The notes below the pieces were generated by a model that searched no databases, had not been told where the DNA came from, and worked only from the letters and a program-made list of their open reading frames with translations. From a virus, in IMG/VR virus record IMGVR_UViG_3300045988_160359, positions 181,570 to 197,570 of that record: 16,001 nucleotides of DNA. One strand, given 5' to 3'. A program made the translations under genes and the position numbers. The stretch's first letter is position 1. Each line of letters opens with the position of its first letter. This document shows positions 1 to 16,001 of the stretch, piece after piece.

Positions 1-29
1 CTCATTATAATAAATCCTTTTTTGTTTTT

Positions 30-58
30 ATTATAGCATATTTTTTAATATATGTCAA
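30..58 (-). promoter_or_regulatory. Canonical sigma70-type promoter (TTGACA-N17-TATAAT) reading leftwards out of the window
   Basis: Minus strand reads TTGACA tatattaaaaaatatgc TATAAT (plus-strand TGTCAA at 53-58, ATTATA at 30-35). Spacer is exactly 17 nt. It lies downstream of the terminator of the 198..605 gene and points toward coordinate 1. Confidence 0.55.
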
Positions 59-140
59 TAAATTGGTTAAAAAATTAGTAAGCCATATTTTGATTTGGGT
101 TTTCGGTCTTTGCCCCCGACCTCGCCCGGAGCAGACCCAT

Positions 141-177
141 AGAAAAATGAGGTTAGGAATTAAATCCTAACCTCATT
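141..177 (-). terminator. Rho-independent terminator for the 198..605 gene
   Basis: 13-bp perfect stem (146-158 aatgaggttagga / 165-177 tcctaacctcatt) with loop attaaa. On the minus strand it is followed by a UUUUU run (plus 141-145 aaaaa). It sits 20 nt past the stop codon. Confidence 0.7.
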
Positions 178-197
178 CAAGAATCAGCGTATTCCGA

Positions 198-605
198 TTA
201 AATCTTGCGGTAGCCCATAACCTTGGACTTCTTGCCCTCGGCATTAGCCACAGTCTGCTCAGCCTTCTCGACCTTCTCAGCGCCGACCAGCTTGGTCAAG
301 CGAGCGCCGACCTTAGCAATGGTCACATCCTCGGGCATATCACCCAGGGCATCCATCACAGCATTACGAGTCATAAACTCGGTATCGCTCAGGACGGCAT
401 ACACCTTATCCATCAGCTCGTCAGCCTCGGCCTTCTTAGCTGCGGCGCGCTCCTTAGCCTTGTCGGCCTTCTTGTCCAGCAGGGCAATCTCGTTCTCACA
501 GAACTCGATAATCTTGGTGGGCTCAACATCAGTCTCACCAGTATTCATCGCCTGGATAATAGCCTCATAAAAATCACGCTTAGTGGTGCGATCAGTAGTC
601 TTCAT
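198..605 (-). CDS. Hypothetical Ala/Lys/Glu-rich protein (~135 aa) with a coiled-coil-like middle; GC-rich moron
   Basis: ORF track 198..623 is extended by a TTG alternative start. The true ATG is M7 (MKTTDRTTKRDF...), preceded by an AAAGAGG RBS. The gene body is about 57% GC against about 39% for the window. It has its own promoter copy A and its own terminator. I recognise no family. Confidence 0.7.
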   Translation of the reverse strand: MKTTDRTTKRDFYEAIIQAMNTGETDVEPTKIIEFCENEIALLDKKADKAKERAAAKKAEADELMDKVYAVLSDTEFMTRNAVMDALGDMPEDVTIAKVGARLTKLVGAEKVEKAEQTVANAEGKKSKVMGYRKI

Positions 606-666
606 CTTGTATACCTCTTTCAAAAATTTATTTTTGTTGTAAGGTCTTCCTTTACCTTACATATAT

Positions 667-695
667 ATTATATAATTTTTTTTTAAAAAAATCAA
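667..695 (-). promoter_or_regulatory. Promoter cassette copy A (TTGATT-N17-TATAAT plus conserved leader)
   Basis: Minus strand: TTGATT tttttaaaaaaaaatta TATAAT ATATATGTAAGGTAAAGGAAG. Plus-strand AATCAA at 690-695 and ATTATA at 667-672. The leader contains a 7-bp hairpin, GTAAGGT aaaggaag ACCTTAC. It drives the 198..605 gene. Confidence 0.75.
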
Positions 696-715
696 AATAC
701 TTTATATTGAACCAG

Positions 716-2452
716 TTAAAAGAAGATTTTGCGAGGATTTTCGATTTCGTTCCCGTCTTCATCAATGAAATAACCCTTATCAAAATCGCAATATCCCGTT
801 TTGAGACTTACCCAACTGCGGTTAGGATTGTCTCTGCGATGCTCCATCCAGCCCTTGCCGTTCCAAGGAATAACATCCTGAACAGCATCCTCAGTCATCT
901 TCTCCAAATCCAGATAAGTATGGGAAATGTTCCACTTATCAACAAACTGCTCAACGGGGCCATAATCCTTGATTTCGCCAGAACGAATCTTCTTAGCACA
1001 ACACTCACACAGAGTATCAAAGTTGAGATGAGTGATATAGCCGTTGAACGCGATTTCAAATGTATTATCACTATGGATGAAATGGCGCTCAGGGTCAGGC
1101 AATTGGTCGCGCCAATCTTCACACTTTTCATTGTGGAGGTCAACCTCACGCTGACAAACGGGGCACTCAGCAGTCTCGTTATCATAGCAATCCTGACAAA
1201 TCAAACGGCCCTCAACCTCATACAATTCATCAGCATCGCAATAACGACCGCACTCTTCACATTCGCCATCACCATTACAGCTATGACAAATCAAATCGTT
1301 GGAACTCAGGAGACTTTCATCATAGCCGCTGGAAGTCTTACCGCAGCCCAGACACTCACTCACACCAGAATAATAAATATCAATCTTCTCCGGCAAAGCG
1401 GCATTCAAATACATCAGATGTTCAAAACGGAAATCACTATACATATGACCAGTAGAAAAATTCACAGGAATTTTCTTCTCGCCAACCTGAACAGTGTTCT
1501 CGCAATCGGCGCGATATCGGCAGGTAGTATCACGATACTGATAATGAAGGTTCTTCTCTGCCAGGCTTTTCAGCCAATTCAGGCACTCGCCCACCAGTTC
1601 ATCATTACAATAGGGATACTCGCGAATATTAACAATAACATCGCGGTCAACAACAAACAGGCAACGCCACTTCTTGCTGTTCCAATGACCATCAGGAATG
1701 TCCATCTCATAGTCAGGATTTCGCAGATACGCCACCACGACACAAGGAGAGTTCATCATCTCTACGGTACCCTGACGATAATCACCACAACCCTGCCAGC
1801 TCATACAACTGTCCCAGCCCTCGTTGTTATCACTCATAGTCATATAATCCAGAGGATGAATAGACAGGCACAATTCGCCGGTCAGCTTTTTCTGATTGAG
1901 GATACGAGAATGCTCCAAACGGAACTGCTCAAAGATTTCGTTCCACTCAGGGTTCTCAAAAGTGGCGAGAATCTTACCCAGAATCTTCACGGCCTTAGCA
2001 CCAGTATTCACACGAACGCCATTCACAGTGAACTCAGTGCGGCTCCAAGAGTTATTAGCCAGCATGTAGGAATCAATCAGCCGACAAATATTATCTGCCT
2101 GGTCATCATCCAGACCCAAAGCGGAATAAATATTCCGAGGCCAGAAATTTTCACGAATCAAAGTGTCCATCGCAGAGATACCGTTGCCATCTCCGCGATA
2201 ACGAGCATCGTTGATTTCATCGGCCAACTCTTCGACGCCCTTAGAGAAGTTAAAGGACTTCCTCAGAACAAGCTGCTCACCGAACATCGTATAGAGACGC
2301 TCCTTAGCCTCTGCCCACGGCGCCATCGTGTTCGGCATAGACTGAACATAACAACCAGTCGCATCATATTCATCATTCTTGCCGCCATATGCCTCAATGT
2401 AAGCACGAATCAGATCAATATCTTCCGTAGTCAGGGCGTCATACAGATTCAT
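716..2452 (-). CDS. Large hypothetical protein (578 aa) with a C-terminal cluster of CxxC zinc-ribbon-like motifs
   Basis: Real ATG at 2450-2452 (MNLYDALTT), immediately downstream of cassette B. The composition is protein-like (D/E/K/N/W-rich). The C-terminal third carries CLGC, CHSC, CEEC, CQDC, CPVC and CECC motifs. I did not recognise the family. The antisense strand is also open (707..2506 +). Confidence 0.85.
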   Translation of the reverse strand: MNLYDALTTEDIDLIRAYIEAYGGKNDEYDATGCYVQSMPNTMAPWAEAKERLYTMFGEQLVLRKSFNFSKGVEELADEINDARYRGDGNGISAMDTLIRENFWPRNIYSALGLDDDQADNICRLIDSYMLANNSWSRTEFTVNGVRVNTGAKAVKILGKILATFENPEWNEIFEQFRLEHSRILNQKKLTGELCLSIHPLDYMTMSDNNEGWDSCMSWQGCGDYRQGTVEMMNSPCVVVAYLRNPDYEMDIPDGHWNSKKWRCLFVVDRDVIVNIREYPYCNDELVGECLNWLKSLAEKNLHYQYRDTTCRYRADCENTVQVGEKKIPVNFSTGHMYSDFRFEHLMYLNAALPEKIDIYYSGVSECLGCGKTSSGYDESLLSSNDLICHSCNGDGECEECGRYCDADELYEVEGRLICQDCYDNETAECPVCQREVDLHNEKCEDWRDQLPDPERHFIHSDNTFEIAFNGYITHLNFDTLCECCAKKIRSGEIKDYGPVEQFVDKWNISHTYLDLEKMTEDAVQDVIPWNGKGWMEHRRDNPNRSWVSLKTGYCDFDKGYFIDEDGNEIENPRKIFF

Positions 2453-2486
2453 TTTGTATCATTTCCTTTCTTCATCTTATATATAT

Positions 2487-2515
2487 ATTATATTATAAAT
2501 TTATAAAAAAATCAA
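2487..2515 (-). promoter_or_regulatory. Promoter cassette copy B (TTGATT-N17-TATAAT plus leader), identical to copy H
   Basis: Minus strand: TTGATT tttttataaatttataa TATAAT ATATATATAAGATGAAGAAAGGAAATGATACAAA ATG. Plus 2447-2501 is identical to 15947-16001. The leader holds an 8-codon uORF (MKKGNDTK*) whose stop overlaps the gene ATG (ATGA). Confidence 0.8.
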
Positions 2516-2516
2516 A

Positions 2517-2549
2517 TAAGGGTCTTACCGCCGAAAGGTAAGACCCTTA
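2517..2549 (-). terminator. Rho-independent terminator (bidirectional) ending the upstream operon
   Basis: 13-bp stem taagggtcttacc / ggtaagaccctta with loop gccgaaa. T-runs lie on both sides (minus atttgattttttt, plus tttttgggggg). It abuts promoter B. Confidence 0.8.
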
Positions 2550-2585
2550 TTTTTGGGGGGATGAAATCAACAAACTGGGGATATA

Positions 2586-4076
2586 TTACTTAACCTGATT
2601 CATCAGCATCAGAGGAATGGCCATGTCCTTCATATCGCCATCATTCATCAGCATCAGCATCATAGGGTTAAACGCATTGGTAGAACCATTGGCCTGGCTC
2701 ATCAGCATCATAGGAATCAGCATATCCTTCATATCGGACTTGCCATCCATCAACATCAGCATCCACATATTGCCAAAGGGGTTCTCAGAAGTGGGAGTCT
2801 GGCCCATCAGGTTATCAAACAGAGACACAACCTTGGTAGCGAAATTGAAGCCAAACATATTCTTAGAAGGCATAATAGTCTTCTTCTCACCAGCCACGGG
2901 GTCAATGGCAACCAGGTCGCCGGCCTCGGTCTTGCTGATAACGAACATAGGCTTGCGTGCGTGGATAACGACATCGCCCACCGCAATGTCCTTGATAGCC
3001 ACAGGCATCTTGAACAGGAAATTGGAACCATCGAAATTGAACACATCGACGTCCATCAGGTCGCCAGCGCTCTTATCATAAGCGGTCCAGACGCCAGAAG
3101 CATTCTTAACAGCCATACCATACATAGACATACGGATGGAATCGTTGGTAATCTTACCGAAATCAAAATTGAAACCCTTCATTTTATTCTCCTTTTCTTC
3201 ATTATCCTTTTTTTCGTAATTCTTACAGTTTTTACACAGGTCATCACAGCAAATGCTTACCTGGTCAGCGCAAGGCTTGATAACATCAGCCCTAGTATTA
3301 AGTTTGGCAACAGAAACCAAATCGTCCGCACTAATAGGCTTAGTGCTACTTGTAGTTGCAAACCAATCAAGAGTGAGGCTATCCGGCTTTACGGCATTGG
3401 TAATGGGCTTAGTAGTGCTGGTAGGCACATTCCAATCAATAGTAAAACCATCAAGCGTCTCAGTATTGGTAGTCGCCTTAGTCGCAGTATTATCTGCGAT
3501 TGGACCGCCTGTAATGCCATTCCAATTCAAATTAGAGGGCTGAGTGGTCGCATAAGCAGGTGAATACTTATCAGCATCGGTGTAAATTTTTTCATATACA
3601 TCGTTGTAATAGTTATTGGTTTCCTTATACTGCTTAATGATATTCTTGTAATAATATTTATCGTTAATAGTCATTTCTCTCTTCCAATTCAATTCTGCTG
3701 TGGTAGGCTTCGTAGAAATGACATACTCAGTGGCTTCTTTTACCTCAATATTGCACATCAATACTTTGACAATAAATTGAGGGGTCAACTCATTGACAAG
3801 AAACTGACCGAAGGATTTATCATCAAAATAAAAGTTTGGAACATTTTCAACGAATACTTTTTTTGTATCAACGTCAAAATGAACAGATGTTGGAACGATT
3901 TTATTATCAACTCTGGAACAACGTTCCTTAATTGTCTTACGAATCTTACACCAAGCATCGTAATCAAACTTCTTATATTGCTTTTGCTTGACTGCCTTAT
4001 TAAACTTCTCAAACAGTTCATCGAACGCGGATTGAGAACATTTAACATACAGAGTGGGACTCTTAATTGTTGCCAT
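2586..4076 (-). CDS. Repeat-containing protein (496 aa) with a Thr/Ser-rich repeated linker and a Met-rich C-terminal tandem repeat
   Basis: ATG at 4074-4076 with RBS GGAGGAAGATA. The N-terminal part is very AT-rich (K/N/Y/I). The middle has repeats DWNVPTSTTKPI and DWFATTSSTKPI. The C-terminus carries two 23-aa repeats, NMWMLMLMDGKSDMKDMLIPMMLM and NPMMLMLMNDGDMKDMAIPLMLM. An FNF motif recurs (GFNFDFG, VFNFDGSNF, MFGFNFATK). Confidence 0.85.
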   Translation of the reverse strand: MATIKSPTLYVKCSQSAFDELFEKFNKAVKQKQYKKFDYDAWCKIRKTIKERCSRVDNKIVPTSVHFDVDTKKVFVENVPNFYFDDKSFGQFLVNELTPQFIVKVLMCNIEVKEATEYVISTKPTTAELNWKREMTINDKYYYKNIIKQYKETNNYYNDVYEKIYTDADKYSPAYATTQPSNLNWNGITGGPIADNTATKATTNTETLDGFTIDWNVPTSTTKPITNAVKPDSLTLDWFATTSSTKPISADDLVSVAKLNTRADVIKPCADQVSICCDDLCKNCKNYEKKDNEEKENKMKGFNFDFGKITNDSIRMSMYGMAVKNASGVWTAYDKSAGDLMDVDVFNFDGSNFLFKMPVAIKDIAVGDVVIHARKPMFVISKTEAGDLVAIDPVAGEKKTIMPSKNMFGFNFATKVVSLFDNLMGQTPTSENPFGNMWMLMLMDGKSDMKDMLIPMMLMSQANGSTNAFNPMMLMLMNDGDMKDMAIPLMLMNQVK

Positions 4077-4086
4077 TATCTTCCTC

Positions 4087-4260
4087 CTACCTACGTCGCA
4101 TTACTTCTGACTTAATATAGTCGAGGTCAGACTGCGACAGGTCATCATCGACGTCAATAGTATAATTGCCCGCGTCCGCATGAACCAGCGCGTCAATAAT
4201 ATCTTCTACCTCTTGGGTGTGCTTCGCATAGGGCCAAAACGGGTCATTCATATTAAACAT
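4087..4260 (-). CDS. Small acidic protein (57 aa, MFNMNDPFWPYAKHTQEVEDII...)
   Basis: Not in the ORF track because it is under 60 aa. ATG with an AGGTGATAAATT RBS. Its stop (TAG) lies within the RBS of the 2586..4076 gene. I read the frame codon by codon. Confidence 0.5.
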   Translation of the reverse strand: MFNMNDPFWPYAKHTQEVEDIIDALVHADAGNYTIDVDDDLSQSDLDYIKSEVMRRR

Positions 4261-4298
4261 AATTTATCACCTACGTTATCGAAATTTCGGACATTCTA

Positions 4299-4538
4299 TT
4301 ACCAATTAACGGAATTTCGTGAAGCGCATGCCTCAATCTCATCAATCTTTACTACGCCTTTGAATTCAAGATTGTTCTTCAAACAATTCTTAGCATAGGT
4401 AATCATCACATTGTCCCAATCGCCCTCTTCTTCGGCAATTCTATCAATATAATGATTACCGGCGTCAATGGCATCAGTAAGGAACAGGTAATAATCCTCT
4501 TCTATGTCGAGAATATATTTAATCTTATAGATAGTCAT
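4299..4538 (-). CDS. Hypothetical protein (79 aa)
   Basis: ATG at 4536-4538 overlaps the stop of the upstream gene (TAATG). Acidic, no recognised family. Confidence 0.65.
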   Translation of the reverse strand: MTIYKIKYILDIEEDYYLFLTDAIDAGNHYIDRIAEEEGDWDNVMITYAKNCLKNNLEFKGVVKIDEIEACASRNSVNW

Positions 4539-4852
4539 TAGTAAATATCACACCCATCTACAATTTCATCAGAATCATACAGTTTCTGAAAACATCCGAC
4601 CAAATCTTCATTGTCAATGCGAGTGACAGACTTCATACAACTGAGCCTGTCAAACATATCAGTCAAACGATTGTCCTCAATACCCTCATAATGAATAGTC
4701 CTTACCTGATAATCCTCGTGATGAGGAACGCACAGATGGATATTAATGAAATATGCCAAGCTAACCTTCAACAGACTCTTGTTCTCATCAAACATTACGA
4801 CGTCCTTATCATGATAGCCATCGTCCAGGACCAAAGCCTTAATCATATTCAT
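4538..4852 (-). CDS. Hypothetical protein (~104 aa, MNMIKALVLDDGYHDKD...)
   Basis: Track ORF 4538..4888 begins at a TTG. An in-frame ATG at 4850-4852 is preceded by an AAGGAA RBS. The stop is in TAATG overlap with the next gene. Confidence 0.65.
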   Translation of the reverse strand: MNMIKALVLDDGYHDKDVVMFDENKSLLKVSLAYFINIHLCVPHHEDYQVRTIHYEGIEDNRLTDMFDRLSCMKSVTRIDNEDLVGCFQKLYDSDEIVDGCDIY

Positions 4853-4871
4853 CAATTCCTTTCTTGTTTCA

Positions 4872-5075
4872 TTATACAAAATTTCCAAGTTCTTTTAGCG
4901 AAGTGAAGAATTCACTAGCCATAGTCTCATTGAGTTGAAGGTCAATCTTATCTCCACTAAAATTAGTAATAGAGAAATTGTAGATACCATTTTCCTTATT
5001 GAGACGGATGTTGGTAGCAGATCTATCATCATCAGAGTTGATACAATAAGTTTTGTTAATGGTTAACATATTCAT
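4872..5075 (-). CDS. Hypothetical protein (~67 aa)
   Basis: Track ORF 4872..5078 with a TTG extension. Real ATG at 5073-5075 after an AAAGGAATTG RBS. It overlaps the 3' end of the 57-aa Cys ORF. Confidence 0.6.
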   Translation of the reverse strand: MNMLTINKTYCINSDDDRSATNIRLNKENGIYNFSITNFSGDKIDLQLNETMASEFFTSLKELGNFV

Positions 5076-5229
5076 CAATTCCTTTTAATTCATTATATAA
5101 ATCCATAATCAATCTATGAGAACATTTCAGAGGATATGTTTCCATATCTGTATCATATTTTTTATATGGACATTCATCACATATAAATTCAGTACAGCAT
5201 TCAAGTGCTTTTTTAATTTCTTCTTTCAT
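5056..5229 (-). CDS. Cys-rich mini-protein (57 aa, MKEEIKKALECCTEFICDECPYKKY...CSH), putative Zn-binding
   Basis: Not in the track. Its ATG is the ATAAG-ATG of cassette C, only about 13 nt after the -10, so it is near-leaderless. CCx4CxxC...CxH pattern. The stop overlaps the next gene's start region. Confidence 0.4.
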   Translation of the reverse strand: MKEEIKKALECCTEFICDECPYKKYDTDMETYPLKCSHRLIMDLYNELKGIDEYVNH

Positions 5230-5240
5230 CTTATATATAT

Positions 5241-5269
5241 ATTATATTATATTTTTTTTAAAAAATCAA
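5241..5269 (-). promoter_or_regulatory. Promoter cassette copy C
   Basis: Minus: TTGATT ttttaaaaaaaatataa TATAAT ATATATATAAGATG. Plus AATCAA at 5264-5269 and ATTATA at 5241-5246. The -35 overlaps the stop of the upstream 49-aa ORF. No terminator lies upstream. Confidence 0.75.
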
Positions 5270-5415
5270 TCGAATAGATTTTTACCAAACTCTCTGCGGT
5301 ATGCGTCTTCGAACATATGCCAATTACCGCAGAAATAGGTATCTACATACCAGTCAACCAAATCGGCGTTAACAGCCTCTTTGATAATGCTAGCAAATAC
5401 ATCTGTGTAATCCAT
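5266..5415 (-). CDS. Small protein (49 aa, MDYTDVFASIIKEAVNADLVDWYVDTYFCGNWHMFEDAYRREFGKNLFD)
   Basis: Not in the track. The ATG overlaps the stop of 5415..5723 (TAATG) with a GAGGAGG RBS inside the upstream gene's end. I read the frame codon by codon. Confidence 0.5.
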   Translation of the reverse strand: MDYTDVFASIIKEAVNADLVDWYVDTYFCGNWHMFEDAYRREFGKNLFD

Positions 5416-5723
5416 TAATATGCCTCCTCAACCTGATACCAAGTAGCAAGAGAACGATGAGTATAATAGCGTGTATACGCATCTACCCAAATAGCCTCCT
5501 CAGCCCACTGAATATGTTCTTTGGCCAGCTCATCGCGTACCTGCTCAACATAATAGTCAATAGTATTATCAAAAATAACACCCTGCTCAACCAAATTATC
5601 ATAGAAAGTATCTACAATAATCTGAGCGCGCATATTGACTACGCCGGGGTCACAAACAATAAATGCAGAACGAGCTCGGTCATCAGATCTCAAACCATAT
5701 TTTATATGATAACGATAATTCAT
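5415..5723 (-). CDS. Paralog family member 3 of 3 (102 aa; N-terminal YRYHIKYGL..., C-terminal ...TWYQVEEAY)
   Basis: ATG at 5721-5723. Its RBS GAGGAG lies in the last codons of the upstream paralog. It shares the N-terminal YxIxYGL motif and the C-terminal WYxVE motif with 5726..6082 and 6082..6447. Confidence 0.8.
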   Translation of the reverse strand: MNYRYHIKYGLRSDDRARSAFIVCDPGVVNMRAQIIVDTFYDNLVEQGVIFDNTIDYYVEQVRDELAKEHIQWAEEAIWVDAYTRYYTHRSLATWYQVEEAY

Positions 5724-5725
5724 AA

Positions 5726-6082
5726 TTACAACTCCTCAAATGGGTCATTAATGTCCATCAATTCCGCCTGATACCAAATATGGTCTTCAAGCATATCATT
5801 GTATTTATTAACCCCAAGGGCCCAGAATGATTGACCTTTATATTCCGGACCCACCGGACGTTTGCCAGTCAAATATTTTACTTTATCTCGGTATTCTTCA
5901 ACAAACTCACCAATAGAATGATTCCATTTAAATCTCTTTCCACGAGCCAGAGCTTCAAAATGATTACGAGCAATACATTGAGCATCTTCAAGAGCCTCTT
6001 CAAGACTCTCGCTATAACGAGTCATAGTTATCATATCGCCCACATCATAAGTGCCGTAAGTAAGCAAATATTTATGAAACAT
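5726..6082 (-). CDS. Paralog family member 2 of 3 (~118 aa, MFHKYLLTYGTYD...WYQAELMDINDPFEEL)
   Basis: Track ORF 5726..6097 is extended. Real ATG at 6080-6082 with a GGGAGGAG RBS, in TAATG overlap with the stop of 6082..6447. Confidence 0.8.
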   Translation of the reverse strand: MFHKYLLTYGTYDVGDMITMTRYSESLEEALEDAQCIARNHFEALARGKRFKWNHSIGEFVEEYRDKVKYLTGKRPVGPEYKGQSFWALGVNKYNDMLEDHIWYQAELMDINDPFEEL

Positions 6083-6447
6083 TAGAACTCCTCCCACTCT
6101 TCTTCTATTGGTATTAACGAAGGAGCTATATCAGGGGCTTTTTCTACTTTATACCAAACATAGTCATCAATCATTGACCAGTATAAATTATTAACATAGT
6201 CCCATGTAGCATCCCATTTATCCCAAGTATTAGGTAAATGTAAATCTTTTATTACTTTTTCGTAAACTTTCTTTTGGCTGGGAAATCGGGCACGGTTTTC
6301 ATTCGCTTTACGGAAAAATAAACTATGGGCTACCCGTGCCGCTCGGGATTGAGCCTGTTCTATATTAGAGGCATTAATAAATATACGACCTTTAAATATG
6401 CCTTCATGAATTATATTATATAGACCATACTCAATCTTATACATCAT
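6082..6447 (-). CDS. Paralog family member 1 of 3 (121 aa, MMYKIEYGLYN...WYKVEKAPD...EEEWEEF)
   Basis: ATGATG at 6447 after the cassette D leader AAGGAAGGAAA. Acidic Trp-rich C-terminus. Confidence 0.8.
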   Translation of the reverse strand: MMYKIEYGLYNIIHEGIFKGRIFINASNIEQAQSRAARVAHSLFFRKANENRARFPSQKKVYEKVIKDLHLPNTWDKWDATWDYVNNLYWSMIDDYVWYKVEKAPDIAPSLIPIEEEWEEF

Positions 6448-6479
6448 AAGCCCATTTCCTTCCTTTACCTTATATATAT

Positions 6480-6508
6480 ATTATATAATAATTTTTAATA
6501 AAAATCAA
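6480..6508 (-). promoter_or_regulatory. Promoter cassette copy D
   Basis: Minus: TTGATT tttattaaaaattatta TATAAT ATATATATAAGGTAAAGGAAGGAAATGG. Plus AATCAA at 6503-6508 and ATTATA at 6480-6485. Confidence 0.8.
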
Positions 6509-6517
6509 TAAAAAAAA

Positions 6518-6544
6518 ATAGGGATAGTATTATACTATCCCTAT
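6518..6544 (-). terminator. Rho-independent terminator ending the 8731..6551 operon
   Basis: 12-bp stem atagggatagta / tactatccctat with loop tta. It is followed on the minus strand by an 8-9 nt U-run (plus 6510-6518 A-run) that merges into the region upstream of promoter D's -35. Confidence 0.8.
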
Positions 6545-6550
6545 TATATA

Positions 6551-6718
6551 TTAATGCTCACGAGGGTGAGCTTCCATATATTCCTTAATGCGGTCGCCAT
6601 CATACCGGCTTGGACATTCCGCACATAAAAACGAACCATAGTTCTTACAAACGTGAATATCCTCATTGGTATTCGGGTCCTTGGGGATATTCAACGGGTC
6701 AAACGCACAATAAATCAT
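6551..6718 (-). CDS. Zn-ribbon-like mini-protein (55 aa, MIYCAFDPLNIPKDPNTNEDIHVCKNYGSFLCAECPS...)
   Basis: Not in the track. ATG at 6716-6718 with RBS GAAGAGGTAAAAGA. Cys at C4, C24, C32 and C35. Its stop lies at the base of the terminator. Confidence 0.5.
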   Translation of the reverse strand: MIYCAFDPLNIPKDPNTNEDIHVCKNYGSFLCAECPSRYDGDRIKEYMEAHPREH

Positions 6719-6733
6719 TCTTTTACCTCTTCA

Positions 6734-7045
6734 TCACCAATTCATTTCAATATATACTTTATTGCCCGTCCAGTTATCCATAGCCATACACTCCTTGCGG
6801 ATAGTACTGATAATCAGATTGAATAGACAATTATAATCGAACTCTTCCTTATCCAGATTCTCGTCCATAGAGAGAAAACCATCTTCTACAAAATCAATGC
6901 GAACGAGGTCTTCACTATATAGTTCGCATTGAGTTATGAGCATATCCCACATATCCAAGAAACAGACATCATAAGTTTTAATGGAATGCTTACACAGTTC
7001 GTAGGCATCACTGAATCGAATGACGTGCCACGTATAAATATTCAT
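6734..7045 (-). CDS. Hypothetical protein (~103 aa, MNIYTWHVIRF...)
   Basis: Track ORF 6734..7054 has a TTG extension. The ATG is preceded by AAAGGATTGATTGAT, whose SD lies in the upstream gene's last codons. Confidence 0.7.
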   Translation of the reverse strand: MNIYTWHVIRFSDAYELCKHSIKTYDVCFLDMWDMLITQCELYSEDLVRIDFVEDGFLSMDENLDKEEFDYNCLFNLIISTIRKECMAMDNWTGNKVYIEMNW

Positions 7046-7050
7046 ATCAA

Positions 7051-7341
7051 TCAATCCTTTCTATTGGGATTGCGGATAATAATTTCTTCTACCTCTTGGG
7101 TACGAATAGGATAAGTTTCAGGAATAGCATTGAAGGCATCAATGATACAATCAAGGTCAGTCTGTTGAGCTATTGTAGTGAAATAAGGGCACTCGCCGCC
7201 CTTTGCCATTGGACAAGTCTCAGAATGACTTAGACCCCAACTACAAAACCAAATTGTGCGATCGTTCCAAGGCATATCAGTGGGATTAGAATAAGGACAA
7301 TCTTCTACCTGAGTAGGCATTTTATCAACAAGGATTTTCAT
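7051..7341 (-). CDS. Cys-rich small protein (~96 aa) with repeated CPY motifs (DCPYSNP ... ECPYFTT)
   Basis: Track ORF 7051..7386 is 5'-extended. The ATG for MKILVDKMPTQ follows a perfect GAGGAGA RBS that lies in the last codons of the upstream gene. Confidence 0.7.
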   Translation of the reverse strand: MKILVDKMPTQVEDCPYSNPTDMPWNDRTIWFCSWGLSHSETCPMAKGGECPYFTTIAQQTDLDCIIDAFNAIPETYPIRTQEVEEIIIRNPNRKD

Positions 7342-7726
7342 AAGTAACTGTCTCCTCATAAGTTGGAATAATTGGGCACTTTTCATTTTTCTCTGCTACT
7401 GGACAATGATTAAGAGTCTCACGACACATGGTCATTTCATCGCCAGTCCAACTATTATAATTCAAATAACTCATATCACAATTTGTAGGATTAGGAACGA
7501 AAGAAGTATCCGTATCATAATTGTCAAGATGAATTTCATTCTTCTCATTTTTACACCGCAGACGCCGACCACAATACGGACAATAGTTTATCTGACGCTG
7601 AATATGAATGAAATCATCATCATAATCGCTCCACTCACCGGTCTCAATATCGAAATACCAAGCATCATCAGTGGGATTGTAATAAACTTCGTGGTCATAC
7701 ATCTTCGGATTACAGCAATCACACAT
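7325..7726 (-). CDS. Cys-rich Zn-finger-like protein (~133 aa, MCDCCNPKMYDHE...CPYCGRRLRC...)
   Basis: Track ORF 7325..7741 is extended by TTG. Real ATG at 7724-7726 (GGGGGGAAATGTA ATG) in TAATG overlap with the upstream stop. Has CDCC and CPYCx4C motifs plus further Cys and His. Confidence 0.7.
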   Translation of the reverse strand: MCDCCNPKMYDHEVYYNPTDDAWYFDIETGEWSDYDDDFIHIQRQINYCPYCGRRLRCKNEKNEIHLDNYDTDTSFVPNPTNCDMSYLNYNSWTGDEMTMCRETLNHCPVAEKNEKCPIIPTYEETVTYENPC

Positions 7727-7995
7727 TACATTTCCCCCCAAGGTCTTTCTTCGATTTCACACTCAAACTTTGTCAGACGATACCGCTTATTACTGATATT
7801 TTTAGGAGCGAGACAATCCATCATAAACGCCGCATTGAATTCCATCGGGCCGGTAAACTCCGTAGATTCTCCATTGGCGCGTGCCTTACGAATCAGATTA
7901 CCAACATATGCTTTGGCTTGTGCATCGTTTTCAGCAATGATTACCTGCTTAGTAAACTCCATACCCTGATGGGCGTAATAAATATACATTTTCAT
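7726..7995 (-). CDS. Hypothetical protein (89 aa)
   Basis: ATG at 7993-7995 with a GGAGGTAAGATGAT RBS embedded in the upstream gene's last codons. Confidence 0.75.
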   Translation of the reverse strand: MKMYIYYAHQGMEFTKQVIIAENDAQAKAYVGNLIRKARANGESTEFTGPMEFNAAFMMDCLAPKNISNKRYRLTKFECEIEERPWGEM

Positions 7996-7996
7996 A

Positions 7997-8731
7997 TCAT
8001 CTTACCTCCGCAACACGAGTTAATATAGTCTGATGAATGTTGTGATAGAGATTATAATTCTTCACAGTCCCGCGAATACGATGCTTAGTACCCTCGGGCC
8101 AGTCCTTCGCAGTAGTAGTCCAGAGATAAATGTTTCCGGACTCGTCCTCAAAAGTCATCATATTGGAATGACCATAATTGGTTTCCAGTTTGTAATTACG
8201 AATGACCACAATACTGCGGTCAATGCGCTCACCAACAGCGCCCTGATACTGACTGGGATGCTCTGGCCACAATAAAGCATCAATATTCTCGTGGATTTCG
8301 GCATCAGTCTTCAACTTCTCGTCATCATTACCAACCAGCGCCCACTCCAACTTCATAGGATTACAGTCAGTAGGCAAGTCCTCAGGAAGGTCGATATCAG
8401 AAGGGAAATACCAGCCCCACAGCCGGCAATACCGGGCAGGAGAATACTTAAAATACTCATTGTTTTCATCCATTCCACCATTCTTAAAAATGGTGATATA
8501 ATCATTTACAAAACCCAGAACAATCTTCTGGGTCTTAAAGGGAATGCTCTGCGGTTCAGCGATGCCATACATCTTGTTATATTCGTCCTCGCTATACCAC
8601 CGCACTTGTCTAGTGCTACCGTTCTTGGGGTTCTGGACCTTCACATACTGACGTCCATTAACAGTATATACCTCGCTCACAATGGCGTAGGACTGGAAAG
8701 ACTTCGCTACCATTTGTATCATTCCCTTCAT
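7997..8731 (-). CDS. Hypothetical protein (238-244 aa), first gene of operon E
   Basis: Three in-frame ATGs lie at the 5' end (8731, 8722, 8713). By analogy with the cassette B leader, the third (MVAKSFQSYAIV..., 8713) is homologous to the gene start used in copy B. No family recognised. The N- and C-terminal thirds have a beta-rich, OB-like character (impression only). Confidence 0.8.
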   Translation of the reverse strand: MKGMIQMVAKSFQSYAIVSEVYTVNGRQYVKVQNPKNGSTRQVRWYSEDEYNKMYGIAEPQSIPFKTQKIVLGFVNDYITIFKNGGMDENNEYFKYSPARYCRLWGWYFPSDIDLPEDLPTDCNPMKLEWALVGNDDEKLKTDAEIHENIDALLWPEHPSQYQGAVGERIDRSIVVIRNYKLETNYGHSNMMTFEDESGNIYLWTTTAKDWPEGTKHRIRGTVKNYNLYHNIHQTILTRVAEVR

Positions 8732-8746
8732 TCATCTTATATATAT

Positions 8747-8775
8747 ATTATATAATATTTTTTAATAAAAATCAA
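8747..8775 (-). promoter_or_regulatory. Promoter cassette copy E
   Basis: Minus: TTGATT tttattaaaaaatatta TATAAT ATATATATAAGATGAATGAAGGGAATGATACAAATGG. Plus AATCAA at 8770-8775 and ATTATA at 8747-8752. Confidence 0.8.
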
Positions 8776-8778
8776 AAA

Positions 8779-8807
8779 AAGGGATGAGGTGCTAGACCTC
8801 ATCCCTT
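8779..8807 (-). terminator. Rho-independent terminator ending operon F
   Basis: 12-bp stem (8779-8790 / 8796-8807, aagggatgaggt / acctcatccctt) with loop gctag. Followed on the minus strand by a 7-nt U-run. The lipoprotein gene's stop codon (8799-8801) lies inside the stem. Confidence 0.8.
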
Positions 8808-9485
8808 CAAAATACTTGTATCAATAATTGAAAAATTAGCCCTATGAACGTACAAATCCATATCATCAATTGTGATATGCGTGGTCTTGGGCAAATTCTT
8901 ACAAAGTTCCCAACTAACATCAGACCCGCTATACATTCGGATAGGCTCGCCTGTCTGAGACTGAATCACGACAACACGAGGCTTCACCGTACGCCCGTGA
9001 GACTGTTCGTTAATACACCACCACTGAACAGTCCAATAGTCAGTCCAATTCATACTATACCAAGGTTCATTAACATCAATATAAGCATCATTGGTGCGGA
9101 CGTGAGTATTAATAACCTCAGGAATATTCATATCCAAGATTTCAAGGCGGTTATCGGCAAAAATAATAGTTGAACCGCACGAATCAATCTGCTTGCCGTC
9201 GATATATACAGACATTACAGAGGACATTGTCCAATTATATTCCCAATATCCTTCGGTGCTATAAGTATATTCCTTCACCTTGTTCGGCTCAATATTGAAA
9301 GTAGAGCCGGTTGCGCTCAGCCACAGGTCGCCGGCGTTATCGTAAAAATCAGCATTGAAAGTGATTTTTACTGCTTCATCTTCTGGCTTATCAGTACCGA
9401 GAGTCTCGCCCTTCGGCCCGCCTACACAGCCGGCGCACATCAGAATAATCAAAACCGCCATCAACGCACACAGAAACTTACGCAT
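8799..9485 (-). CDS. Putative lipoprotein (~228 aa) with signal peptide and lipobox (MRKFLCALMAVLIILMCAG|C)
   Basis: Track ORF 8799..9569 is 5'-extended. The ATG at 9483-9485 has a GGGAGGAG RBS and overlaps the upstream stop (TAATG). Basic N-terminus, hydrophobic core and an A-G-C lipobox. The mature part is Trp/Tyr/Asn-rich. Last gene of the operon. Confidence 0.75.
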   Translation of the reverse strand: MRKFLCALMAVLIILMCAGCVGGPKGETLGTDKPEDEAVKITFNADFYDNAGDLWLSATGSTFNIEPNKVKEYTYSTEGYWEYNWTMSSVMSVYIDGKQIDSCGSTIIFADNRLEILDMNIPEVINTHVRTNDAYIDVNEPWYSMNWTDYWTVQWWCINEQSHGRTVKPRVVVIQSQTGEPIRMYSGSDVSWELCKNLPKTTHITIDDMDLYVHRANFSIIDTSILKG

Positions 9486-11735: not shown

Positions 11736-11764
11736 TGAGAAATCACCTTTCCTTTACCTTATAT

Positions 11765-11793
11765 ATATATTATATTATAAATTTTTAAAAAAA
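11765..11793 (-). promoter_or_regulatory. Promoter cassette copy F
   Basis: Minus: TTGATT tttttaaaaatttataa TATAAT ATATATATAAGGTAAAGGAAAGGTG. Plus AATCAA at 11788-11793 and ATTATA at 11765-11770. Only a weak 6-bp hairpin lies upstream (gagaga...tctctc), so there is no strong terminator here. Confidence 0.75.
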
Positions 11794-11797
11794 TCAA

Positions 11798-12094
11798 TTA
11801 GAGAGAATATTTCTTGATAAAATCTCTCAAACCGTAGTCATAAAGGTCGGCATCAAGCTGGTCATCGTTGATATCGTCGAACGCATTAGGGATTTCGTAG
11901 ATTGCGTAATCATACTCGCGTTCACCCTCCTCGTAGAGGTCGGTCAATGTAGTATAACTATCAATCAGTTCATCACACAAACATCGACCGATTTCATCGG
12001 CCTCACTAAAAGTATTAATGTGGTAGATGCCGCAATTGAAATATCCGTGGAGCCCGCCATAATAGGGCTCAGTTGCGTAAATTGCTACTCTCAC
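11798..12094 (-). CDS. Acidic protein (~98 aa), a possible ArdA-like DNA-mimic or anti-restriction candidate (low confidence)
   Basis: The best start is GTG at 12092-12094. GAGAGGAG lies 7 nt upstream and the GTG is in 4-nt GTGA overlap with the HNH gene's stop. The track's upstream ATG (12121) has no SD. The N-terminal VAIYATEPYYGGLHGYF loosely resembles the ArdA N-terminal IYVANLxxYNxGxLxGxW motif. The C-terminal half is strongly D/E/Y-rich. Confidence 0.6.
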   Translation of the reverse strand: MRVAIYATEPYYGGLHGYFNCGIYHINTFSEADEIGRCLCDELIDSYTTLTDLYEEGEREYDYAIYEIPNAFDDINDDQLDADLYDYGLRDFIKKYSL

Positions 12095-12804
12095 GCTTTT
12101 ACTCCTCTCAAATAATTCCATTTACGAGAATACATAGAACCATTCATACGAATGGTATTGCACAGCTTAAAGAAAAACTTCTCTTCGGTGGTGCTAACCT
12201 TAGAATTGTGCTGACAAAGCCAATCCATAGCCTCCATTGCCGTGCCTCTAAAACCATCATTGTTGATAAAAACAGTATCAAGAGTGATACCCTCTTGAAC
12301 AATGAAGGCGCGACAAGTAGTATCAGTAGTAGTAGCCAGCCATTTACCCAGAATATCGCCGCAGTTTTCCAGAATTTTCCCAGTATCCCGGTCGGTGGGT
12401 TCGGCGGTCTCAATAGGTTTAATAGGCTCAGTACCTGCATTGATTACAACAGGGACAGGGCTCGCCACAATATCATTGTTAGCGCGCATAAGATTCTCGG
12501 CCTGGCTAACCCATTCCAGATTATCAACGCGGTTATTGCGCTTATTGTGATCGAGATGGTCAACAGTGAATGCCTCGCGGTCTTCGATGGGACACCACGT
12601 ATACATTACCAAACGATGTGCCATACGGTTGCCGTGTTTGGTCTTTACAGACACATAGCCGTTCTGAGAATAAATTTTCTTAGGAATAGGACGCTTATGA
12701 ATGTCCTTAAAGTTGCCGAAGTTGGAAACCCAAACTCCATACTCCTTATTAAACTTCCACTTTTCAAACTCAATATGCAAGGTGGGAAAAATCATCATAA
12801 ACAT
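12091..12804 (-). CDS. HNH homing endonuclease (NUMOD4 N-terminal motif plus HNH_3-type core)
   Basis: EFEKWKFNKEYGVWVSNFGNFKD matches the N-terminal signature of phage HNH homing endonucleases. HRLVMYTWCPIEDREAFTVDHLDHNKRNNRVDNLEWVSQAENL is the HNH_3 catalytic motif (DH..-N-N.....NL.W......N). ATG is M2 of the track ORF, with an AAAGGAATTG RBS. It is driven by its own cassette copy G. Confidence 0.85.
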   Translation of the reverse strand: MFMMIFPTLHIEFEKWKFNKEYGVWVSNFGNFKDIHKRPIPKKIYSQNGYVSVKTKHGNRMAHRLVMYTWCPIEDREAFTVDHLDHNKRNNRVDNLEWVSQAENLMRANNDIVASPVPVVINAGTEPIKPIETAEPTDRDTGKILENCGDILGKWLATTTDTTCRAFIVQEGITLDTVFINNDGFRGTAMEAMDWLCQHNSKVSTTEEKFFFKLCNTIRMNGSMYSRKWNYLRGVKA

Positions 12805-12834
12805 CAATTCCTTTCTCTTTTACCTTATATATAT

Positions 12835-12863
12835 ATTATATAATAATTTTTAAAAAAAATCAA
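12835..12863 (-). promoter_or_regulatory. Promoter cassette copy G (drives the HNH endonuclease)
   Basis: Minus: TTGATT ttttttaaaaattatta TATAAT ATATATATAAGGTAAAAGAGAAAGGAATTG ATG. The -35 (plus 12858-12863) lies inside the left arm of the terminator stem at 12860-12898. Confidence 0.8.
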
Positions 12864-12898
12864 TAGAGGATTTTACGTTTGGTAAAATCCTCTATTGA
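12860..12898 (-). terminator. Rho-independent terminator ending operon H
   Basis: 17-bp stem (12860-12876 / 12882-12898; ...atagaggattttac gtttg gtaaaatcctctat...). Followed on the minus strand by a U-run (plus 12852-12857 A-run). It begins 9 nt after the stop of 12907..13191. Confidence 0.8.
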
Positions 12899-12906
12899 CT
12901 AAACTA

Positions 12907-14539: not shown

Positions 14540-14724
14540 AGCGTTCCTCCAATCAATTGAACAATGAGGACAATCCACATAGTAATGAGAGCAACTGCGA
14601 CAAGAATACACATAAATGCTATCATAATATCGAATAATTTACTCTCACTCTTTTCGTGGAGAAATGTATTAAAAAAGAAAAAGCCGATACCTGTGAGAAC
14701 GAGAGCAAACAGTATTTTATTCAT
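14536..14724 (-). CDS. Two-TM membrane mini-protein (62 aa)
   Basis: ATG at 14722-14724 with a GGGGAGGAAG RBS, in ATGA overlap with the phosphoesterase stop. Helices ILFALVLTGIGFFFF and IMIAFMCILVAVALITMWIVLIV. Confidence 0.75.
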   Translation of the reverse strand: MNKILFALVLTGIGFFFFNTFLHEKSESKLFDIMIAFMCILVAVALITMWIVLIVQLIGGTL

Positions 14725-15709: not shown

Positions 15710-15952
15710 TCACATAATCTCATCGAACGCCTGTTCGATTGCGTCATCTTCCCGATAATGATAACTGTCTTCCAGTTCAATGGCTCGTGCAGCGATTCTA
15801 TCCACACAAGCCTCGGACTCAGGGTAGTTTTCAAGAATATAATCGCGCTTGGTAAGGAAACGATACTCATCGTATGCATCTTTAAGGTCATTCATAGTCA
15901 TCTCAACAGTCTGGCCGTATTCAGTTCTGAAACGCATTACAATATCATTCAT
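15710..15952 (-). CDS. Acidic hypothetical protein (80 aa), first gene of operon H
   Basis: ATG at 15950-15952 directly after the cassette H leader. That leader and the first two codons (MN) are identical to those of the 716..2452 gene. Confidence 0.75.
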   Translation of the reverse strand: MNDIVMRFRTEYGQTVEMTMNDLKDAYDEYRFLTKRDYILENYPESEACVDRIAARAIELEDSYHYREDDAIEQAFDEIM

Positions 15953-15986
15953 TTTGTATCATTTCCTTTCTTCATCTTATATATAT

Positions 15987-16001
15987 ATTATATTATAAAT
16001 T
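15987..16001 (-). promoter_or_regulatory. Promoter cassette copy H (partial; -10 and leader only inside the window)
   Basis: 15947-16001 is identical to 2447-2501 (copy B). By that offset the -10 lies at 15987-15992 and the -35 would be just beyond the window end. Confidence 0.6.

Follow-up and report, generated by a model that had tools for sequence, protein, structure and literature searches.

The gene block and its phage

Examination of the window, namely the entire 16,001-nucleotide stretch of DNA analyzed here, revealed some 40 small genes (mean length 128 aa), all of which lie on the minus strand. Distributed among these genes, and oriented as they are, are eight promoter cassettes, termed A to H, and the terminators that adjoin several of them. 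Judging from promoter consensus and context, the window would correspond to an early ('host-takeover'-type) block of an uncultivated human-gut phage with a genome of ~180-200 kb. The phage recodes TAG, as was noticed because sequences used as tblastn queries carry in-frame TAG codons; the early block found in the window uses the standard code.

The affiliation of the phage was considered using several of its proteins and those of its relatives. Megablast of the window against GenBank phages, including Herelleviridae and others, yielded no nucleotide match, nor was a match to the 578-aa protein obtained by tblastn. A 44-mer taken from the window had no exact match in IMG/VR. The DUF5052 protein gave matches of only 30-39% identity, with large Lactobacillus phages being the sole cultured phages matched (30%). 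GyrB from a cassette-bearing contig matched, at no more than 44% identity, uncultivated faecal phage records and a few Listeria, Staphylococcus and Enterococcus phages but also many enterobacterial phages, such that no clear affiliation emerged. When ten large proteins encoded by related loci were compared to PHROGs, matches to tape measure, tail protein, endolysin and RNA-binding protein were returned, with no family assignment. Nothing in the GenBank, tblastn and PHROGs matches appears to point to a T4-like phage. The host is probably Gram-positive; the endolysin of one relative, a multi-domain protein with amidase-family matches, can be read as being of the Gram-positive type. No Rfam family was detected in the window, and no tRNA was detected when relatives L061, L062 and L009 were scanned, with the ORF-poor 1.3-kb insert of L062 among the sequence covered.

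Eight near-identical promoter cassettes

The cassette is a sequence of ~45 nt of the sigma-70/sigma-A type, TTGATT-N17-TATAAT-ATATATATAAG, together with a leader and SD. A search for TTGATT-N17-TATAATATATAT recovered seven full copies and the H copy, which is cut by the window end, on the minus strand only, when none was expected (200 shuffles). Every copy with its -35 inside the window matches 10 of the 12 sigma-70/sigma-A consensus positions, with a spacing of exactly 17 bp. On the basis of this consensus, the cassettes are predicted to be strong sigma-70/sigma-A-type promoters. Pairwise identity among the cassettes is 63-83%, apart from B and H, the most similar pair of the family, which are 99% identical over 70 compared positions. 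The sequence of promoter B is unchanged in relatives L003 and L009. In plus-strand coordinates, the -10 hexamers start at 672 (A), 2492 (B), 5246 (C), 6485 (D), 8752 (E), 11774 (F), 12840 (G) and 15992 (H). The cassettes and associated elements are as follows:

653-696, minus strand: cassette A, without a terminator; leader hairpin at 638-661
2447-2515, minus strand: promoter B; -35 at 2515-2510, -10 at 2492-2487, then leader, SD and codons 1-2 of the 578-aa gene
2514-2552, minus strand: predicted terminator B, at the end of the unit containing the 496-aa gene; 16 pairs, -24.2 kcal/mol, z -5.5
4842-4869, minus strand: half-cassette consisting of the leader/SD/start motif AAAGGAATTGATGAATATG; further copies at 5065-5092 and 12794-12821
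5226-5270, minus strand: cassette C, without a terminator; the leader ATG at 5229 begins ORF C1
6466-6545, minus strand: predicted terminator D (6545-6517), T9 run and promoter D (-35 at 6508-6503, -10 at 6485-6480)
8732-8808, minus strand: predicted terminator E (8808-8778) and promoter E (-35 at 8775-8770, -10 at 8752-8747), with a B/H-type leader
11755-11798, minus strand: cassette F, without a terminator; the TAA stop codon of the upstream gene adjoins the -35
12821-12900, minus strand: predicted terminator G (12900-12858) and promoter G (-35 at 12863-12858, -10 at 12840-12835)
15947-16001, minus strand: cassette H, cut by the window end; -10 at 15992-15987, leader, ATG at 15952

The window stops short of both the -35 of cassette H and the terminator belonging to it, the continuation being read in contigs L077, L078 and L061.

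Terminators packed against the promoters

In the initial annotation, four cassettes (B, D, E and G) were described as sitting directly against strong terminator hairpins, a description that folding bore out. Together with H, once extended, five of the eight cassettes adjoin strong predicted intrinsic terminators, each comprising a G+C-containing stem and then a U-rich tract, 3' of a stop codon on the coding strand. The hairpins at B, D, E and G fold at -18 to -25 kcal/mol (z -5.5 to -9.4), while that of H, read in MEGAHIT contigs L077 and L078 bearing an identical H gene, has a stem unlike that of B and folds at -19.7 kcal/mol. No upstream terminator hairpin was found at cassettes A, C and F.

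The two elements are closely interlocked. In B, E, G and H, the stem either comes to within 0-4 nt of the -35 or extends into it; the 3' arm of terminator B shares 2 nt with the -35 of promoter B, and the -35 of G does lie within the stem, as had been noted, with the whole of TTGATT falling within the 3' arm of a 19-pair stem. The accompanying proposal that the U-run of the terminator serves as the tract upstream of the -35 holds for D only, where a T9 run is found. In B, E, G and H, the U-tract is instead TTGATTTTTTT itself, that is, the -35 and the T-run of the spacer, broken by the GA of TTGATT.

This arrangement extends beyond the window. The cassette pattern was recovered in 60 stretches of 43 IMG/VR contigs, mostly of 110-200 kb, meaning that at least 43 large gut/rumen viral contigs bear a cassette. 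Among 121 distinct cassettes from related viral contigs, 44% present a hairpin of at least 7 bp directly upstream, as compared to 7.5% of random windows, with the 3' end of the stem clustering at positions -3 to +2 of the -35. Sigma-A-like variants of the cassette, homogenised separately, are seen in more distant relatives, in some cases with TGnTATAAT.

Gene gain and loss at the cassettes

The cassettes lie among the small, variable ORFs of a hyperplastic region. Indeed, in relatives encoding a phosphoesterase 54-71% identical to that in the window, only two of the 39 other window genes have a homologue within ±10 kb, and these in just one or two of eight loci. Gene-level indels were sought by comparing the window with close relatives 85-95% identical to it (141926, 140174 and L083/L085). 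This revealed ten such events, of which six occurred at the edge of a cassette or terminator, where 0.2 per event was expected (P=0.006); the other four fall at plain SD/start microhomologies without a promoter cassette. Orthologous cassette cores differ at ~0-3 positions in the junction alignments, with the aligned DNA as a whole being 88-94% identical. Three variable regions directly adjoin promoters C and F:

4872-5229, minus strand: variable ORFs C1 (5056-5229) and C2 (4872-5075), between promoter C and ORF C3
5266-5415, minus strand: 49-aa ORF directly upstream of promoter C, missing in L083
11592-11735, minus strand: variable 47-aa ORF F1, directly after promoter F

Both C1 and C2 are present in the window, one of the two is found in 140174 and neither in 141926 or L083. 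C2, missing from 140174, is flanked in the window by the half-cassette copies at 4842-4869 and 5065-5092, and the 140174 junction falls within this half-cassette repeat. On the other side of promoter C, the 49-aa ORF ends in a TGA inside the TTGATT of the cassette, and the L083 breakpoint coincides with the upstream edge of the -35. F1 is missing at the promoter F site in both 141926 and 140174, and in the distant phage L064 a cassette is immediately followed by a homologue (58%). The F junction is too untidy for a clean excision between cassettes, with the first four codons of the downstream gene differing as well. The C and F breakpoints lie between the -10 and the SD/ATG. Other changes map to terminators: a 297-aa gene has been inserted at the foot of terminator B, and an insertion hot spot just upstream of terminator D presents three states, these being two unrelated genes or nothing.

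In a wider comparison, 14 of 53 block boundaries across five genome pairs fall in the cassette zone, as compared to 8.5 expected under a strict gene-junction null, a marginal enrichment (P=0.036). Within this zone, boundaries cluster at -2 to -5 and at +46 to +52 of the -35. In a more distant pair, L067 and L074, a 2.6-kb promoter-gene-terminator module is found at two different cassette-bounded sites. A four-gamete argument for recombination between spacer and leader among the eight cassettes was set aside, given that orthologues differ by a single-base G/A at the same leader position.

Related genomes thus differ at cassette junctions, through both indels and replacements at cassette edges, as the initial annotation had led one to expect. 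Its proposal of gene capture or recombination at the cassettes is likewise supported, with crossover inside the cassettes being suggested by the positions of the breakpoints.

Probable early promoters that may double as recombination linkers

Taken together, it is likely that the cassettes are early host-type promoters fused to terminators that double as recombination linkers, forming a PeSL-type system in a TAG-recoding phage. According to this proposal, the block would be divided into short transcription units, each opening with a near-identical strong host-type promoter and a conserved leader and SD, and most closing in a terminator packed against or nested in the next promoter, with the T-rich -35 and spacer doubling as the U-tract. 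The cassettes would fire early via host RNA polymerase, and the terminators would insulate the units from each other. At the same time, the 45-75-nt cassettes would offer portable homology ('linkers') to a phage recombination system, and promoter-gene-terminator modules could be inserted, deleted, swapped or relocated at these linkers. Clustering of breakpoints does not of itself prove crossover within a cassette, because a conserved promoter among variable genes bounds blocks of homology in any event.

That last point is at the heart of the main competing explanation, in which the cassettes are ordinary strong early promoters and terminators conserved by selection on expression, genes turn over by illegitimate or microhomology recombination at gene boundaries, and the cassettes appear as ends because they are the sole conserved intergenic sequence. 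The four indels at SD/start microhomologies, the untidy F junction and the modest significance obtained with the gene-junction null in five pairs agree with this, as does the finding that indels in the host-takeover region of Kayvirus are also bordered by an SD-start direct repeat (PMC6445280). Selection on expression does not, however, readily account for the excess of indels at cassette edges, for the three-state site upstream of terminator D, for the movement of a whole module between two cassette-bounded sites, or for each genome having its own homogenised version of the cassette, which suggests exchange among copies. As such, promoters conserved by selection alone are considered an unlikely explanation.

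Far less probable still is that the cassettes are promoters recognized by an RNA polymerase or sigma factor of the phage, or operators bound by one of its regulators. While this would explain the long TATAATATATATATAAG block, with conservation reaching 11 nt past the -10 and an invariant AAA in the spacer exceeding the needs of a minimal sigma-70 promoter, the cassettes present two hexamers at an exact 17-bp spacing around a variable, A/T-only spacer, and those of relatives shift towards the textbook TTGACA and TGnTATAAT. Promoters of single-subunit polymerases do not have the bipartite -35/-10 form seen here.

The preferred reading of the cassettes as promoters doubling as linkers can be extended, albeit speculatively and with doubt, to a clade-wide gene-cassette system. 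Here, modules would be cut out, possibly in the form of mini-circles, and could re-enter at any other cassette, within or between co-infecting phages, so supplying the standard-code, host-polymerase-dependent early genes of TAG-recoding gut/rumen phages. The nesting of terminator in promoter would then have been selected as a dual-use, self-contained element of ~75 nt.

The B/H duplicate

Cassettes B and H had been reported as identical over all 55 nt available, up to the second codon of different genes. This was indeed so (55/55 nt), with identity ending at 2446 and 15946, past codon 2. Whether it continues beyond the window end had been left for checking: in the independent contigs L077 and L078, identity is exact to ~74 nt, beginning at the foot of the terminator stem, taking in the leader and reaching codon 2, rather than stopping at the promoter, an outcome that would have spoken against recombination. 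The figure of 55 nt itself probably reflects an assembler k-mer effect at the contig end. That the entire duplicate is an assembly artefact, namely a k-mer overlap copied onto a contig end, is scarcely credible: although the window ends at 15946+55 and SPAdes contig L086 begins at 2446+55, both as a k=55 assembler would behave at a repeat, six independent contigs with an identical H gene (the k127-named L077, L079, L081 and L082 and the NODE contigs L078 and L080), plus the IMG/VR relative L061, read through H with the same sequence and on into a different terminator, and L084 reads through B in the same sample.

The identity of B and H does not date from a recent event, as it is already present in a relative with 88% identical aligned DNA. 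When further copies of the B/H-type leader were sought in all loci, only B and H were found in each genome, such that this leader is a lineage-specific pair and not a widespread one. B and H may have come to share promoter, leader and start region by ancestral duplication or gene conversion, and would have been kept identical since.

Likeness to known systems

PeSLs, described in the T4-like phages RB49/phi1, T4/PST and KVP40/nt-1 (Arbiol et al. 2010, PMC2839356; Comeau et al. 2014, PMC4122927), consist of a stem-loop, a sigma-70-like promoter immediately 3' of it, an SD and a start codon, and are repeated among the small ORFs of a plastic region (PMC4122927, PMC2839356). Crossovers have been mapped between the -10 and SD/ATG (PMC2839356), and a role as linkers for module exchange has been proposed and partly demonstrated in T4-like phages. 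The PeSL-like architecture recognized in the initial annotation agrees with the published definition in five of the eight cassettes (B, D, E, G and H). Shared with PeSLs are the composite of stem-loop terminator, sigma-70-like promoter, SD and start codon; the abundance of conserved copies within a plastic region of small ORFs; the replacements and indels seen at the cassettes in close relatives, with breakpoints in the same interval; and the occurrence of 'half' elements and of promoter-ORF-terminator modules able to move.

The two nonetheless differ. Their sequences are unrelated, the -35 here being TTGATT and the stems not of the G-run/C-run type. The terminator is packed on or nested in the -35, with the U-tract formed by -35 and spacer, whereas that of PeSLs lies upstream of an A/T-rich region, and the conserved block after the -10 is longer here. 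PeSLs are also characterized by mini-circles, seen by inverse PCR, and by promoter and terminator activity in reporter fusions. The cassettes considered here, with predicted promoters and terminators, belong to an uncultivated TAG-recoding gut phage, probably of a Gram-positive host, that shows no sign of being T4-like. The resemblance is one of analogy, not homology.

The host-takeover modules of Herelleviridae, in which small early genes form short operons whose promoters and ribosome-binding sites resemble those of strongly expressed genes (PMC6873191), offer a second comparison. As in SPO1 genes 37-60 and the Kayvirus long terminal repeats, dozens of small early genes with host-type -35/-10 promoters are seen, and the SD-start repeat at Kayvirus indels is akin to the half-cassette repeat around ORF C2. 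On the other hand, nucleotide similarity is not detectable, and a role for cassettes in shuffling is absent from the cited descriptions. Herelleviridae are not known to recode TAG.

The morons of lambdoid/HK97-like phages are genes inserted, with their own promoter and terminator, between two other genes. The module that differs in position between L067 and L074 similarly represents an autonomous promoter-gene-terminator unit, which one genome possesses at a site where a relative lacks it. Morons, however, sit in the late operons of temperate phages, whereas the units considered here are arranged in tandem, use one homogenised promoter family and occupy an early region of lytic type.

Implications

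Regulatory cassettes that double as recombination linkers would carry the PeSL idea beyond the T4-like phages, in which the papers naming PeSLs in the library searched chiefly discuss these elements, and into a widespread uncultivated group of gut/rumen phages. The data include natural 'before and after' genomes, in the form of one three-state site and one relocated module. Host-type promoters are, moreover, tied here to an early block that is in the standard code although the phage recodes TAG, in agreement with the model whereby early genes rely on the machinery of the host until the code is switched (bioRxiv 10.1101/2021.08.26.457843). In practical terms, the cassette pattern serves as a marker with which early regions of related phages can be found. 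The cassettes also break short-k assemblies; short contigs beginning at cassettes represent such assembly breaks rather than circles.

A family of predicted promoter cassettes within a block of small genes

All sizeable ORFs of the window lie on the minus strand, where some 40 genes, with a mean length of 128 aa, cover 96% of the sequence. Distributed among them, on the same strand, are eight copies (A-H) of a cassette of about 45 nt, comprising TTGATT, a 17-nt A/T-only spacer in which a T-run precedes an A-run, TATAAT, ATATATATAAG and a purine-rich leader with its SD. Repeat and pattern searches located the -10 hexamers of these copies.

Starts of the -10 hexamers
672 (-), cassette A
2492 (-), cassette B
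5246 (-), cassette C
6485 (-), cassette D
8752 (-), cassette E
11774 (-), cassette F
12840 (-), cassette G
15992 (-), cassette H, cut by the window end

The pattern TTGATT-N17-TATAATATATAT was matched seven times in the window, only on the minus strand, and never in 200 shuffles. In a promoter consensus scan, each cassette scored 10/12 with a spacing of 17 bp. Pairwise identity over 70 nt was 63-83%, the exception being the B/H pair, with 99% over the 70 positions compared. The leader of B, E and H reads AAGATGAA.GAAGG.AATGATACAAA, the first part of which is shared by C, while A, D, F and G carry AAGGTAAAGGAAGG.

In type-1 leaders (window 2450-2476, 5056-5229 and 8733-8735, minus strand), an ATG is found 11 nt past the -10 hexamer. 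In B and H, this ATG opens an 8-codon mini-ORF, the TGA of which overlaps the main start codon (ATGA). The corresponding ATG of C starts C1, a Cys-rich ORF of 57 aa; as C1 is not preceded by an SD, its translation may use an mRNA that is nearly leaderless. The canonical leader/SD of cassette A (GGTAAAGGAAG) is base-paired within a hairpin of 8 bp (window 638-661), and the gene that follows uses a second SD some 45 nt further on, with its ATG at 605. The last small gene is followed by a perfect promoter of another type, TTGACA-17-TGcTATAAT (window 30-58, minus strand); beyond it, L084 and L083, contigs that continue past this point, contain larger genes (270, 346 and 520 aa) without Pfam matches.

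Predicted promoter-terminator fusions

The initial annotation had described strong hairpins lying directly against B, D, E and G, and a terminator scan recovered all four on the coding strand, with folding energies of -24.2, -18.4, -23.3 and -24.8 kcal/mol (z -5.5 to -9.4). Cassette H likewise adjoins a terminator (-19.7 kcal/mol), the stem of which is unlike that of B. No hairpin was found at A, C or F (folding z +1.1, +0.7 and -1.4, respectively); at F, the stop codon of the upstream gene adjoins the -35 hexamer, and at C, the upstream TGA lies inside TTGATT. The -35 hexamer of copy G does lie inside the stem, as had been claimed, with the entire TTGATT being paired within a stem of 19 pairs. 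The proposal that the terminator U-run doubles as the A/T tract upstream of the -35 holds for D (T9) and had to be revised for B, E, G and H. In these four, the stem ends 0-4 nt short of the -35 hexamer or overlaps it, such that the U-tract of the terminator is TTGATTTTTTT, namely, the -35 hexamer together with the spacer T-run.

At about 12975-13025 of L084 lies another promoter, TTGACT-17-TGTTATAAT, unrelated to the cassettes. A terminator hairpin overlaps its -35 hexamer with both the loop and the 3' arm, and the T8 run serves as its spacer, giving a nested design as in cassette G with a different sequence.

Distribution of the cassette in related phages

No nucleotide-level similarity to GenBank phages was found. 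In IMG/VR, TTGATTTTT-N14-TATAATATATATATAAG matched 60 stretches on 43 contigs, mostly of 110-200 kb, several of which hold 4-8 copies. Two of these 43 contigs are close relatives, 140174 (197.7 kb; about 91-95% identical) and 141926 (128 kb; about 88% identical), to which an exact-protein look-up added L083 (a 199-kb scaffold; 94%), L085 and L086. Aligned DNA is overall 88-94% identical between the window and its relatives, and, where junctions were aligned, orthologous cassette cores show about 0-3 differences.

An HMM prepared from the eight cassette cores and run over all loci collected yielded 121 distinct cassettes. An uninterrupted hairpin of at least 7 bp, including at least 3 G-C pairs, lies directly upstream of 44% of these, compared to 7.5% of random windows, with the 3' stem end concentrated at -3 to +2 of the -35 hexamer. 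As part of this set was retrieved by the cassette pattern itself, conservation of the core there is partly by construction. Loci retrieved via a phosphoesterase protein are independent of the pattern, and among these, each sub-lineage presents its own homogenised version.

Cassette versions of sub-lineages
L067 and L074: TTGATTTTTATAAAAAAATATGtTATAATATATATAGAAAG
L063 and L064: TTGAAATTTT…
L065 and L066: TTGACw…TGnTATAAT

These versions have the appearance of sigma-A-type promoters, and concerted evolution of the cassettes within genomes is indicated.

The gene after promoter B (578 aa; window 716-2452, minus strand) belongs to PHROG 18912 and gives a weak, sub-threshold match to a prokaryotic RING finger. 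Large homologues occur in further cassette-bearing contigs (L039, L045, L054, L025 and L028), with a cassette being upstream of the homologue in L054. Direct repeats spaced by 99-102 nt (families D6, D8 and D9; window 2594-2763) occupy the 3' end of a 496-aa gene, its most diverged part in L083 (87%), whose version of the protein has 502 aa.

The B/H duplicate

The 55/55 identity of B and H, 13.5 kb apart, is real and stops after codon 2 of two unrelated genes. As the initial annotation had asked, the identity was followed past the window end, where it proved to continue, comprising about 74 nt of exact match from CTTATTTGA at the stem foot to ATGAAT. The exact 80-aa H protein was found on several human-gut contigs, and L077 and L078 cross cassette H. 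The window ends at 15946+55, while the SPAdes contig L086, assembled for another sample, has its first position at 2446+55. Both breaks fall at +55, as when an assembler with k=55 breaks at a repeat longer than k, from which we infer that the window stops at a contig end and that the value of 55 nt reflects k rather than biology. An assembly artefact as the source of the duplicate was excluded by the contigs crossing H, together with L084, from the same sample, which crosses B and is 99.99% identical to window 1-9190.

The B/H pair is old. In 141926 (88% identical overall), both copies are unchanged, and in 140174, the H copy has lost 2 nt, carries one substitution and differs in its gene start. 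In all loci searched, the B/H leader is limited in each genome to B and H. At 11789-11888 of L083, an N run with duplicated flanks lies exactly at cassette A of the scaffold and is a scaffolding artefact.

Changes in gene content at the cassettes

Ten gene-level indels were identified among the window and its close relatives, six of them at the edge of a cassette or terminator (P=0.006, given 8 cassettes among about 40 junctions) and four away from promoter cassettes.

Indels at cassette or terminator edges
Directly after promoter F: F1 (47 aa), absent in both IMG/VR relatives; left breakpoint between -10 and SD
After promoter C, before ORF C3: two ORFs in the window, one in 140174, none in 141926 and L083
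Before promoter C: 49-aa ORF missing in L083; break at the upstream edge of the -35
Before terminator D, after the stop of a 55-aa gene: two events, three states
Foot of terminator B: 297-aa gene with its own terminator, inserted in L083 and L085

Non-cassette indels
ORF C2, downstream of promoter C: flanked by a 19-nt leader/SD/start repeat, AAAGGAATTGATGAATATG
62-aa ORF: between two GGAGGAA SDs
Window 14724-14737: 1.3-kb insert in 140174 (L062 10728-12060)
978-nt insert in L083

The no-ORF state after promoter C has a canonical, B-like leader. Before terminator D, the window and 140174 contain no insert, 141926 contains an ORF of about 100 aa with its own stem top, and L083 contains an unrelated 122-aa TM2/SHOCT gene. 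The repeat AAAGGAATTGATGAATATG represents a 'half-cassette' and occurs a third time, downstream of G. In the 1.3-kb insert, only a few short ORFs (<=59 aa) and no tRNA were found.

When block boundaries were counted automatically in five genome pairs, the cassette zone held 14 of 53, with 8.5 being expected under a gene-junction null (P=0.036) and about 2 under a length-based null; those inside the zone are concentrated at -2 to -5 and +46 to +52 relative to the -35 hexamer. In L067 and L074, an independent pair, a 2.6-kb module comprising promoter, 840-aa gene and terminator has cassettes at both ends in both genomes, and neighbours that differ between the two. In the distant phage L064, a cassette immediately precedes the closest homologue of F1 (58%).

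The cassettes are best read as putative early promoters of a strong, host-type kind, joined to the terminators of the units before them, that would also offer homology for module exchange. Being long, conserved and repeated, they could allow modules to be inserted, lost, replaced or relocated, presumably through crossover inside the cassette. The main alternative, that selection maintains the promoters and indels simply happen at gene boundaries, would account for the four non-cassette indels and the untidy junction at F, yet is a poorer fit to the enrichment at cassette edges, to a site with three states, to the relocation of a module and to a homogenisation specific to each genome. That the cassettes are promoters of a phage polymerase is unlikely, given that their geometry is bipartite with 17-bp spacing and that relatives drift towards the textbook sigma-A consensus.

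The first gene past promoter G encodes an HNH endonuclease (Pfam HNH_3, PHROG 59; window 12091-12807, minus strand). It is present in both IMG/VR relatives (84% aa identity) and is not among the observed indels.

Comparison with PeSLs and other systems

Promoter-early stem-loops (PeSLs), a term used in the literature searched chiefly for T4-like phages, consist of a stem-loop placed immediately before an A/T-rich region and sigma-70-like -35 and -10 boxes, which are followed by an SD and a start codon. These elements are conserved, lie mainly in hyperplastic regions and are tied to indels between close relatives. They have promoter and terminator activity and can give rise to mini-circles, the crossover lying between the -10 and the SD/ATG (PMC4122927, PMC2839356). 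Every PeSL feature that can be tested in sequence is found in the window cassettes, although the sequences are unrelated, and no sign of a T4-like genome was seen in the window phage. As such, the cassettes are considered to work like PeSLs rather than being filed as homologous members. The PeSL-like interpretation first offered is supported as an analogy, with comparative evidence, and the underlying observation of terminator-promoter cassettes and a B/H duplicate stands, with one correction, concerning the U-tract, and an extension. A further resemblance is to the host-takeover modules of SPO1 and Kayvirus, with their small early genes, strong host-type promoters and indels at SD-start repeats (PMC6873191, PMC6445280). 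The window units also resemble tandem 'morons'.

Apparent TAG recoding beyond the window

A survey of stop-codon recoding in gut phages does not mention promoters (bioRxiv 10.1101/2021.08.26.457843). None of the 40 window genes contains an in-frame TAG, and their stop codons are TAA (24), TGA (15) and TAG (1). In L084, a contig of the same strain, the sequence just past the left window edge (11096-17841) holds seven called genes, six of which contain 1-6 in-frame TAG codons; in-frame TGA or TAA never appears in the L084 genes from 11096 onward. This suggests that TAG is recoded (code-15-like) in a later block of the phage, with the cassette-driven block appearing to be its standard-code part.
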